Part shown: positions 3,561 to 5,911 of the stretch, piece by piece
How the letters are laid out: each line of letters begins with the position of its first letter
How positions within the stretch are numbered: position 1 is the stretch's first letter
Sequence record: PP400779
From: Escherichia phage JM17
Strand: one strand, 5' to 3'
DNA: 64,000 nt
Notes under the pieces: generated by a model
Told to the model about the DNA's origin: nothing
Database searches by the model: none
The model's input: the letters and a program-made list of their open reading frames with translations, nothing else
Made by a program: the position numbers and the translations under genes

Positions 3561-3841
3561 TTCTTTATGCTAAAGTATCGTCCATTGAGAACGGATATGA
3601 AAGCGACCAACGTGCAGCTAAAGCACTAGTTAATGACTACGGTATTCTGACTATCTTTGAGGTTGAAAAGGTTTATATCGACCGTTCATCTTCGCAAGTT
3701 AAATTACTCTGTGAAGACGATAAATTTAACACAGTTAACTTTGATTTCTTTATTGAAACAGAAAAAGGCCCTCTTGAATATGACATTTTCAAGAATCCTT
3801 TAGGACTTGATTGCATTCAGAACACATACACAATATGGTGA
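3557..3841 (+). CDS. hypothetical protein
   Basis: ATGA start/stop overlap with upstream ORF. Confidence 0.4.
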   Translation: MILYAKVSSIENGYESDQRAAKALVNDYGILTIFEVEKVYIDRSSSQVKLLCEDDKFNTVNFDFFIETEKGPLEYDIFKNPLGLDCIQNTYTIW

Positions 3842-3962
3842 GAAATCGTTTTGCCAACTGTTAAAATGATTGATTTGCTTTAAGAATTATGTGTTATTAT
3901 TAATTCATACCCTCTATTACCAAAGGTACTCTAAAGTGCCTTTCATAATAGAAAGTTATTTA

Positions 3963-4036
3963 GGCCCTGTAGCTCAATGGTTAGCAGCAGTCCCCTCATA
4001 AGGGAAAGGTTACCAGTTCGAATCTGGTCTGGGTCA
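3963..4036 (+). tRNA. tRNA with anticodon CAU (Met, or Ile2 if lysidine-modified)
   Basis: hand-folded cloverleaf: acceptor GGCCCTG/CTGGGTC (one U-U mismatch), D-loop with GG, anticodon loop CUCAUAA, T-arm ACCAG-TTCGAAT-CTGGT. Confidence 0.6.
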
Positions 4037-4042
4037 TATATT

Positions 4043-4119
4043 CGAGGCATAGCTCAATTGTATAGAGCAACGGATTTCTAATCCGTAGGTTGAAGGTTAG
4101 AATCCTTCTGCCTCGACCA
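4043..4119 (+). tRNA. tRNA-Arg (anticodon UCU), CCA encoded
   Basis: acceptor CGAGGCA/TGCCTCG, D-stem GCTC/GAGC, anticodon stem ACGGA/TCCGT with loop TTTCTAA, T-arm GAAGG-TTAGAAT-CCTTC, discriminator A plus CCA. Confidence 0.85.
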
Positions 4120-4435
4120 AATAAGAAGCCGGGTCGCTACCGGTAAGTCGTCGGACTGATGTTCCCTGAGTAAGGACTGGTCTTAATAAATCTTTACGAT
4201 TTGTTAATATCCCCTTACATCACAGCAGAAACGGCGCACCGAATTATCGATTCGAGGAAATATCTTTGCCGTAAGCCGAGTAGCGTTTTTGACGGAACGT
4301 TCGGATATGGTCGAGATATGGCCTTTTAAAAATATTGAGTAGCGTCAACTGCTTAATAACCGGGTTCGAATCCCGGCGTTTCGTACAAACACTTGCCTTA
4401 GCAGGTGGGACCCCGACAAGGTTGCCGCAAGGCTT
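4120..4435 (+). ncRNA. non-coding region after the tRNAs with tRNA-like T-arm (CCGGG-TTCGAAT-CCCGG at 4360-4376); candidate stable RNA or decayed tRNA
   Basis: no credible ORF; T-loop motif present but no full cloverleaf could be folded by hand. Confidence 0.25.
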
Positions 4436-4466
4436 AGCCCCTTCCTTATGGTTGGGGCTTTTTGGC
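4436..4466 (+). terminator. rho-independent terminator, copy 1 of a hairpin repeated three times
   Basis: CCCCTTCCTTATGGTTGGGGCTTTTTGG. Confidence 0.6.
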
Positions 4467-4508
4467 ATAATAATAAATAGATAAGTTAATTAACTTAGGA
4501 AAAGCAAC

Positions 4509-4973
4509 ATGAAATCATACGCTGAATTTTTGACTGAACAATCTAGTTCAGATGTAAAAGCCGCTGCGATTGCAGCAATTCAAGCAGGTAAATATTCTTA
4601 CAAAGACGCCTCTGATGAAGAACGTTTCCGTTTTATTAGAGATTTTAAAGCCGAAGGTTTTACTAATGCTAATACTGTTAGCCGAGTTTTTAAAAGCCTA
4701 GCTGCATCAGGTGAATTGTTCCAGAAAGCTACAGGTAAAGCACCTGCGCCAAAAGCGGACCCTAAAGCAGCTCAAGAAAAAAATATCGCCAAAGGAATTA
4801 TTTCTAAGTATGAAGCAATTCTTAAAGAGCTTTTAGTAATCAAAACAGAAGGACAGAAACTGGCACGAGCACATAGCTTCAAAGATAATCCTCACGCTCA
4901 TAGCCTTGAGTATGTTGAAGATATCCAAAAACTTATTAAAGACCGTATCTGGTCTGCTAAACAAATTAAATAA
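4509..4973 (+). CDS. internal protein-like basic protein (leader MKSYAEFLTE)
   Basis: 154 aa, Ala/Lys-rich; CTS-like N-terminus. Confidence 0.5.
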   Translation: MKSYAEFLTEQSSSDVKAAAIAAIQAGKYSYKDASDEERFRFIRDFKAEGFTNANTVSRVFKSLAASGELFQKATGKAPAPKADPKAAQEKNIAKGIISKYEAILKELLVIKTEGQKLARAHSFKDNPHAHSLEYVEDIQKLIKDRIWSAKQIK

Positions 4974-4979
4974 TAGAAT

Positions 4980-5010
4980 GCCCCCTTCCTTATGGTTGGG
5001 GCTTTTTGGT
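4980..5010 (+). terminator. rho-independent terminator, copy 2
   Basis: same 28-nt hairpin plus T-run as 4436-4466. Confidence 0.6.
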
Positions 5011-5097
5011 ATCTAGGGCATAAAAATATTTCATAAAGATGTTTACTTCTTCCCTAGATGTGTTACTATAGACCTATAAAAACATGAGGAAAATATT

Positions 5098-5403: not shown

Positions 5404-5471
5404 AAATAATGATGTACAAGCACCAAGGATGGTGATACTATAGACTTATCAACTACAGAGGAGTAAACAAA

Positions 5472-5636
5472 ATGACTACTTTAATTATTTGGTTCGATGA
5501 AAATGAAGAAACATACTGTGTGAATATTGGTGAAAGTCCAATGCCTGAATTTGAATCCTCGGATAAAAACTCTGTTGTATCTTGGGCTGAAGGTTATAAA
5601 GCCGCTAAAGGTGACGTTGAAATAATTTACATCTAA
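5472..5636 (+). CDS. small hypothetical protein (54 aa)
   Basis: not in track (under 60 aa); ATG preceded by AGAGGAG and a TGTACA...TACTAT promoter. Confidence 0.3.
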   Translation: MTTLIIWFDENEETYCVNIGESPMPEFESSDKNSVVSWAEGYKAAKGDVEIIYI

Positions 5637-5683
5637 GTACGTTTATGTTATAGTAATCACATCAAATCAAGAGGAGAAACAAA

Positions 5684-5911
5684 ATGGCTACAGTTAGTAT
5701 TGATGTCGTTGATTATGAATACACTGAAGAAGTTATTCGCAACCGTCACCCTGAAGTTCGTATCGATTCAGTCCAAGATTCCAAGTTTTGGACAACTGAG
5801 CTTAATCTGAGCGGTCCTTATGAAGCTGTTAAGAAGTTCATGGTTGAAGAATACTGCGAAGGCATGCACCCCGAAGACACCAAGTTTTATGTCAATTTGA
5901 TTAAAAAATAA
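5684..5911 (+). CDS. hypothetical protein
   Basis: ORF with SD AGAGGAGAA. Confidence 0.4.
   Translation: MATVSIDVVDYEYTEEVIRNRHPEVRIDSVQDSKFWTTELNLSGPYEAVKKFMVEEYCEGMHPEDTKFYVNLIKK

Follow-up and report, generated by a model that had tools for sequence, protein, structure and literature searches.

Probable orthologues of the T4 small stable RNAs rnaD and rnaC follow the two tRNA genes of a Mosigvirus-like Escherichia phage, and rnaC has a conserved tRNA-like fold

The DNA analysed here is a stretch of 64,000 nt from Escherichia phage JM17 (sequence record PP400779; hereafter the window). It comes from an RB69/T4-type, Mosigvirus-like phage, the best DNA matches being RB69-type (Mosigvirus) T4-like phages with ~98% identity. 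In agreement with the first-pass annotation, which had noted two clean tRNAs with anticodons CAU and UCU (Arg), ARAGORN and Rfam detect exactly two tRNA genes in the 64 kb, and its description of a reduced tRNA locus is a fair one, as the corresponding locus of T4 carries eight. The reference order in T4 is tRNA-Arg, rnaD (species 2 RNA, T4s002, 119 nt), a 6-nt spacer and rnaC (species 1 RNA, T4s001, 139 nt), followed by a trailer; the whole of this block aligns with the window base for base, with the same gene order and with window lengths of 120 nt for rnaD and 139 nt for rnaC. On this homology, the interval behind the tRNAs very probably consists of the orthologues of T4 rnaD and rnaC and, after them, the trailer and terminator of the operon (Table 1; the exact 5' and 3' ends of both RNAs are transferred from the T4 annotation). 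The earlier suggestion of a stable small RNA at 4120-4435 was thus right in kind, since the homologous T4 genes are annotated as small stable RNAs, but the region holds two RNAs and not one; similarly, the proposed box does span both RNA genes but takes in only part of the operon trailer, the terminator reaching 4463.

Table 1 Features of the tRNA/stable-RNA locus, in window coordinates
Feature	Position	Strand	Basis or details
tRNA, anticodon CAU	3963-4036	+	ARAGORN; Rfam tRNA, 54 bits; 73/74 identical to T4 tRNA-Ile
tRNA-Arg (UCU), CCA encoded	4043-4119	+	ARAGORN; Rfam tRNA, 72.6 bits
rnaD (T4 'species 2' stable RNA), 120 nt	4121-4240	+	106/121 identical to annotated T4 rnaD
rnaD 5' hairpin P1	4128-4144	+	Predicted fold; GCCGG, loop GUCGCUA, CCGGU
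rnaD long rod	4147-4237	+	P2, G(U)CGUCG 4147-4153 with CGGCGC 4232-4237; inner helices; variable apical hairpin
rnaD 3' tail ACC	4238-4240	+	T4 tail is ACCA
Spacer GAAUUA, 6 nt, rnaD to rnaC	4241-4246	+	T4 annotation mapped through the alignment
rnaC (T4 'species 1' stable RNA), 139 nt, tRNA-like	4247-4385	+	137/139 identical to T4 rnaC
rnaC acceptor-like stem, 5' strand CGAUUCG	4248-4254	+	Pairs with 4377-4383; two invariant U·U mismatches
rnaC long irregular hairpin, D-arm position, ~70 nt	4255-4324	+	Base AGG/CCU; apical loop UUGACG 4289-4294
rnaC 10-bp hairpin, anticodon-arm position	4333-4358	+	Loop CGUCAA 4343-4348; 9/10 pairs covary
rnaC T-arm	4360-4376	+	CCGGG, loop UUCGAAU, CCCGG; middle pair covaries; unique in the window
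rnaC acceptor-like stem, 3' strand CGUUUCG	4377-4383	+	Followed by U-A-C-A-A
Trailer hairpin CACUUGC-CUUA-GCAGGUG	4390-4407	+	Conserved in T4; kept in Dhakavirus phages without rnaC
Intrinsic-terminator-like hairpin AGCCCCUUCC-UUAU-GGUUGGGGCU and U run	4436-4463	+	Folding

The two tRNAs differ in their relation to T4. Although ARAGORN labels the CAU tRNA as Met, its T4 homologue is annotated as tRNA-Ile, and the near-identity of the two genes (Table 1) makes it probably a lysidine-type, AUA-reading Ile tRNA; the modified nucleoside k2C34 has been reported on the CAU tRNA of a T4-like vibriophage (PMC13191261). The tRNA-Arg, in contrast, is only 44/75 identical to that of T4 (locus L002, 2674-2748) and represents a different sequence lineage, despite having the same anticodon and occupying the same slot directly before rnaD, which argues that the tRNA gene was replaced while rnaD and rnaC were retained. 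Both in the window and in T4, rnaD starts 1 nt past the CCA of tRNA-Arg. Close relatives differ at this junction: a 345-bp open reading frame, RB69ORF150c (114 aa, phrog_3355), lies between tRNA-Arg and rnaD in ATK47, JK45 and APCEc01 (locus L001, 1737-2081). It is absent at the 4119/4121 junction of the window, where CCAA runs directly into ATAAGAAG, and apparently also from JM10, to which the full query aligns as a single ungapped piece.

The assignment of the two RNAs rests on several concurring observations. The window rnaC is homologous over its full length to annotated T4 rnaC, belongs to the tRNA transcription unit, where it comes next after tRNA-Arg and rnaD on the same (+) strand, and shares its fold with members from other genera, as seen both in an end-to-end covariance-model match and in pair counts (see below). 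For rnaD, homology to the T4 gene is combined with a position immediately 3' of tRNA-Arg; the encoded 3' end differs, being CCA in T4 and CCG in the window. By blastn, 801 phage records match the interval, the match extending over 80% or more of its length in 679, and rnaC or rnaD is annotated at the homologous place in ATK47, RB5, RB10 and Aplg8 (rnaC in the close relative ATK47). The identity of the locus is therefore already known from T4, where the two small stable RNAs have been known since the 1970s, and what the present work adds is their annotation in the window and a structure derived by comparison. A 2022 omics study validated T4 RNAC by Northern blot (PMC9697503), and RNAC and RNAD are classed as late RNAs 'of yet unknown functions' (PMC9697503; PMC3014915).

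Records of related phages present the region differently. Over the equivalents of window positions 4201-4484, many GenBank phage records carry a 'hypothetical protein' CDS and one a 'tRNA-OTHER', while few annotate rnaC or rnaD. If these CDSs were real, the interval would encode small proteins, and mechanical open reading frames of 42 and 49 aa (plus strand) and 74 aa (minus strand) do overlap it. Both plus-strand frames start with TTG, however, and the 74-aa frame is interrupted in T4, VR7 and VR25; none of the frames is conserved, all being broken in these close relatives. The alignment in addition contains 1-nt indels among close relatives, and the substitutions track RNA pairing rather than codon positions. 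A coding role is accordingly extremely unlikely, and the view of the first-pass annotation that the interval holds no credible open reading frame stands. An origin from the host was likewise rejected, as blastn found no match to the interval in 5,426 complete E. coli genomes.

To describe the structure of rnaC we collected 28 distinct homologues, of which 23 were aligned (alignment A3), drawn from ~9 genera (Tequatro-, Mosig-, Gapriver-, Karam-, Gelderland-, Winkler-, Moon-, Kanagawa- and Marfavirus) and from IMG/VR. A loose pattern search of IMG/VR returned 63 loci, ~50 of which were chance matches in GC-rich contigs; the metagenome scan contributed only three further true homologues and no new loop variants. 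RNAalifold, the fold of the single sequence (MFE -50.2 kcal/mol, z = -4.55) and explicit counting of pairs concur on a three-armed, tRNA-like structure. In A3, 92% of the proposed pair cells form, compared with 34-47% once the partners are displaced by 1-3 columns; 17 pairs show changes on both sides, and the observed values were reached by none of 500 shuffles. The fold of rnaC is thus tRNA-like and supported by covariation. In this fold a 7-bp acceptor-like stem closes the molecule, with four invariant pairs, the two U·U mismatches at its centre and one covarying pair, the third (A-U in 8 sequences, G-C in 15). The long irregular hairpin begins right after the 5' acceptor strand and shows covariation at each of the five pairs of its apical stem; the linker that follows is A-rich, contains the invariant AAAAU and leads to the 10-bp hairpin, and the T-arm adjoins the 3' strand of the acceptor-like stem. 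The hairpin domain in the D-arm position occurs in two markedly different sequence types, that of T4 and a 'type 2', whose independently predicted folds are alike and both of which keep the apical loop.

The perfect T-arm that had been noticed in the interval is indeed at 4360-4376 on the plus strand, and it is the sole match in the 64 kb even when two mismatches are allowed (matches expected by chance: 0 in 100 shuffles). The statement that the region contains no foldable cloverleaf survives in part: neither ARAGORN nor Rfam recognizes a standard tRNA, but 4247-4385 does fold as the three-armed tRNA-like structure. ARAGORN detects no tRNA or tmRNA in 4120-4435. At the gathering score of Rfam 15, only the two tRNAs are found in the window, and relaxing the threshold to E<=10 over 3800-4600 yields nothing significant, a tRNA-Sec threading scoring 16.6 bits (E=2.6). 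We also built a covariance model, R1, from nine type-2 sequences only, all from other genera; its only match in the window spans the whole of 4247-4385 (95.2 bits, E ~2e-23). A covariance-model search, which had been proposed as a check on whether the interval specifies an RNA, is therefore ambiguous in its outcome: no Rfam 15 family matches, but the purpose-built model matches strongly. An alternative acceptor pairing, CGGAACG (4293-4299) with CGUUUCG, agreed with the weak tRNA-Sec threading; it was rejected, as a G·U in it becomes A·C in COW86c-type sequences, whereas the pairing of the 5'-terminal CGAUUCG covaries correctly.

The T-loop itself is not invariant. In Serratia phage LC53 and in one metagenome contig (loci L019, 1126-1265, and L087, 5057-5196) it reads UGCAUCC or UGCAUGC, with the remainder of the RNA conserved. 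A tRNA-type elbow is consequently not kept universally in rnaC, since two lineages have this non-canonical loop.

The two other arms have complementary loops. In all 23 sequences, the 6-mer at the apex of the long hairpin is perfectly complementary to the 6-mer in the loop of the 10-bp hairpin; both are invariant outside Marfavirus, in both domain types, and in the three Marfavirus sequences both change together, to UUGGCG and CGCCAA, converting an A-U into a G-C pair. As two fixed 6-mers are complementary by chance with a probability of only ~1/4,096, a loop-loop (kissing) pairing of 4289-4294 with 4343-4348 is likely, its support consisting of one compensatory event in one clade and of the invariance elsewhere. 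For such a contact the long hairpin must fold back on itself, and the pairing could equally occur between molecules. Kissing complexes with fully paired 6-nt loops are exemplified by HIV TAR-TAR*, to which the rnaC loops correspond in being complementary over six bases; they differ in lying within one molecule and in that their pairing is predicted from sequence alone. A reading of the same motifs at the DNA level, with TTGACG or CGTCAA as -35 boxes, was rejected: no suitable -10 is present, a promoter scan was empty there, and the loops co-change in Marfavirus.

These comparisons bear directly on the proposal that the interval is a decayed tRNA. If it consisted of one or more decayed tRNA genes, the neutral leftovers of a larger tRNA cluster, one could account for the presence of two tRNAs here as against eight in T4, and for a perfect T-arm and acceptor-like stem that persist although neither a canonical D arm nor a canonical anticodon arm is present; rnaC, moreover, probably does have a tRNA gene as its distant ancestor. 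Neutral decay and loss of pairing, as expected of a tRNA pseudogene, are the opposite of what is observed. rnaC is 98.6% identical to its T4 counterpart (137/139), and the flanking protein-coding genes only 70-82% at the DNA level, so that rnaC is conserved like a tRNA and is under strong purifying selection. Its helices have been maintained over ~9 genera by compensatory substitutions, those at the 17 pairs described above; the parts foreign to a tRNA, the loop 6-mers and the AAAAU linker among them, do not vary; and a stable RNA is produced from rnaC in T4 (PMC9697503). Decay can thus be set aside as most improbable, and that rnaD and rnaC are conserved, structured non-coding RNA genes, neither decayed tRNAs nor protein genes, is firmly supported.

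For rnaD, modelling (MFE -36.2 kcal/mol, z = -2.75) predicts a 5' hairpin, P1, followed by a long rod. A hairpin is kept at the position of P1 with other sequence, as GUCGG...CCGAU in LTH01 and CAGAA-GACG-UUCUG in Karamvirus and Jiaodavirus. RNAalifold, applied to 13 sequences, retains P2, in which the closing G-C is replaced by A-U in KP182, and shows covariation in the inner helices; at -9.45 kcal/mol the consensus energy is weak, and most of P1 and P2 is invariant in this 13-sequence sample. The fold of rnaD is less well supported than that of rnaC because so much of the molecule is invariant in the sample. A 5-6-nt match between the P1 loop and GUAGCG in rnaC was also considered as a contact between the two RNAs and was taken as chance, since in Karamvirus the P1 loop differs while rnaC is the same.

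Homologues of rnaD are found in the Tevenvirinae and in one phage of the Vequintavirinae, LTH01, where an unannotated copy follows tRNA-Met (locus L079, 1197-1300). Karamvirus and Jiaodavirus have a shorter type, also unannotated, flanked by tRNA-Asn and tRNA-Asp (loci L081 and L082, ~480-590 in each). AnYang has an extra rnaD-like mini element of ~65 nt upstream of rnaD, and the IMG/VR contig L046, which shows the same 12-nt flank upstream of rnaD, apparently carries it too.

The genomic setting of the two RNAs varies between genera. Three phages, Erwinia phage COW86c, Salmonella phage Melville and Klebsiella phage VPA32, carry rnaC flanked by tRNA-Trp and tRNA-Gly, and in Serratia phage LC53 its neighbours are tRNA-Phe and tRNA-Trp; the spacers around it in these arrays measure 5-11 nt, as for a tRNA gene. 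Its 3' flank is always U-(A/C)-C-A-A, which in Marfavirus phages gives an encoded U-CCA. In the Dhakavirus phages VR5, AnYang and IME281 the trailer follows directly after rnaD, an exact deletion of rnaC (loci L005, 1499-1640; L006, 1415-1640; L080, 598-730). rnaC and rnaD are separable modules, and each is dispensable in some lineages, given that Dhakavirus lacks rnaC and several genera have a diverged, short rnaD.

Downstream of the trailer hairpin, the hairpin at 4436-4463 probably marks the end of the tRNA/stable-RNA transcription unit, to judge from its predicted fold; an internal 2x2 mismatch explains why a simple terminator scanner missed it. This terminator-like hairpin with its T run is present twice in the window, at 4438-4468 and 4982-5012 (97% identical), and the two copies flank an open reading frame at 4509-4973 (154 aa, phrog_2280); together, the frame and the repeats look like a cassette bounded by repeated regulatory stem-loops. 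Further along lies a 48-nt direct repeat (5465-5512 and 5677-5724, 71% identical) that spans the starts of two small adjacent open reading frames, at 5472-5636 and 5684-5911, which may be diverged tandem paralogues.

The position of rnaC between tRNA genes with such short spacers in other genera leads us to infer that both RNAs would be transcribed together with the tRNAs and excised by the host enzymes that mature them. This could involve recognition of the stacked acceptor and T-arm in the manner of RNase P, then trimming of the 3' end and possibly CCA repair. A different reading of the same setting is that rnaD and rnaC are cis-acting modules for the processing or stability of the tRNA transcript (for instance by letting in RNase III, RNase E or RNase P, or by protecting the 3' end of tRNA-Arg), which would have no function in trans and would accumulate merely from being well folded. 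Both RNAs are invariably located within tRNA transcription units or at their end, which agrees with this, as does the status of species 1 RNA and its precursor, which from work of Paddock, Abelson, Pragai and Apirion in the 1970s-80s are reportedly classic substrates of RNase III and RNase P. Nothing in such a role, however, would call for 139 nearly invariant nucleotides, for loop 6-mers that complement each other or for two U·U mismatches that never vary. Neither does it fit easily with an rnaC that stays constant while its neighbours vary by genus (Arg/rnaD, Trp/Gly, Phe/Trp), or with Dhakavirus, which retains tRNA-Arg and rnaD without rnaC, and we regard a purely cis-acting function as quite unlikely.

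rnaC shares with canonical tRNA (RF00005) the closing 7-bp acceptor-type stem, the three-arm junction, the 5-bp T-stem with its UUCGAAU loop (the UUCRANY type) directly 5' of the acceptor 3' strand, a genomic slot between tRNA genes and a CCA-like 3' tail. It differs in having no D-stem and loop, no 7-nt anticodon loop and no variable region, and in possessing the ~70-nt hairpin in the position of the D arm and the two acceptor-stem U·U mismatches; in line with this, neither ARAGORN nor RF00005 finds, within 4120-4435, a tRNA with a D arm and a 5-bp anticodon stem carrying a 7-nt loop. Retention of the acceptor/T-arm half with replacement of the decoding half recalls the tRNA-like domain of tmRNA and the YrlA or Y-RNA-like modules, a likeness that is a functional analogy only; rnaC has no sequence relationship with either. 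At only 139 nt, and unlike tmRNA, it has neither G3·U70 (its pair 3-70 is A-U or G-C) nor a tag reading frame, and over rnaC there is neither an ARAGORN tmRNA call nor an Rfam tmRNA match. The sole YrlA-type match in Rfam (17.8 bits, E=0.78) falls on the tRNAs and not on rnaC.

Because it retains the acceptor/T-arm half but has other, internally paired structure in place of the decoding half, rnaC could act as a tRNA mimic, decoy or scaffold. In such a scheme the acceptor/T-arm half would be bound by a protein that recognizes tRNAs, and the part equivalent to the anticodon would be locked by the loop-loop pairing, which would make the molecule a decoy or scaffold and not a decoder or an antisense regulator. 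A mimic or decoy is the likeliest of the roles considered, though we hold it only with low confidence; the fuller version, in which rnaC is a dedicated mimic locked by the kissing interaction and, together with rnaD, inhibits a host activity directed at tRNA (for example a defence nuclease or an enzyme of processing or repair), is quite unlikely. The two lineages with a non-canonical T-loop and the whole genera that lack one of the RNAs caution against over-reading the mimicry. On laboratory strains, T4 is able to grow with its tRNA region deleted.

Base-pairing regulation would be another way of acting in trans, with rnaC and/or rnaD serving as small RNAs that target host or phage mRNAs through conserved unpaired stretches. 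Conserved single-stranded segments suited to this do exist, namely the AAAAU linker of rnaC and GUUCCCUGA of rnaD. The best seeds in rnaC are nevertheless complementary to each other and co-vary, pointing to internal pairing, and the blastn search of the E. coli genomes gave no match, a result that excludes only extended complementarity or homology. Altogether we consider antisense regulation very unlikely.

A hint that rnaD or rnaC has a host-dependent role comes from a 2025 study in which lines of a T4-like phage were evolved on semi-permissive E. coli: one SNP, located inside rnaD, was common to all of them (PMC12685909).

The present finding is a rediscovery, from sequence alone, of two RNA genes known in T4 for ~50 years. 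In most deposited genomes of this phage group, rnaD and rnaC are either unannotated or lie under spurious 'hypothetical protein' CDSs, and no Rfam family represents them. The comparative picture, with its tRNA-like fold and invariant U·U pairs, complementary loops that co-vary, modular gain and loss within tRNA arrays, and rnaD homologues outside the Straboviridae, offers concrete mutants. Should the reading of rnaC as a mimic and inhibitor prove true, rnaC would be a determinant of host range, which would fit with the convergent mutation of rnaD on a semi-permissive host (PMC12685909).
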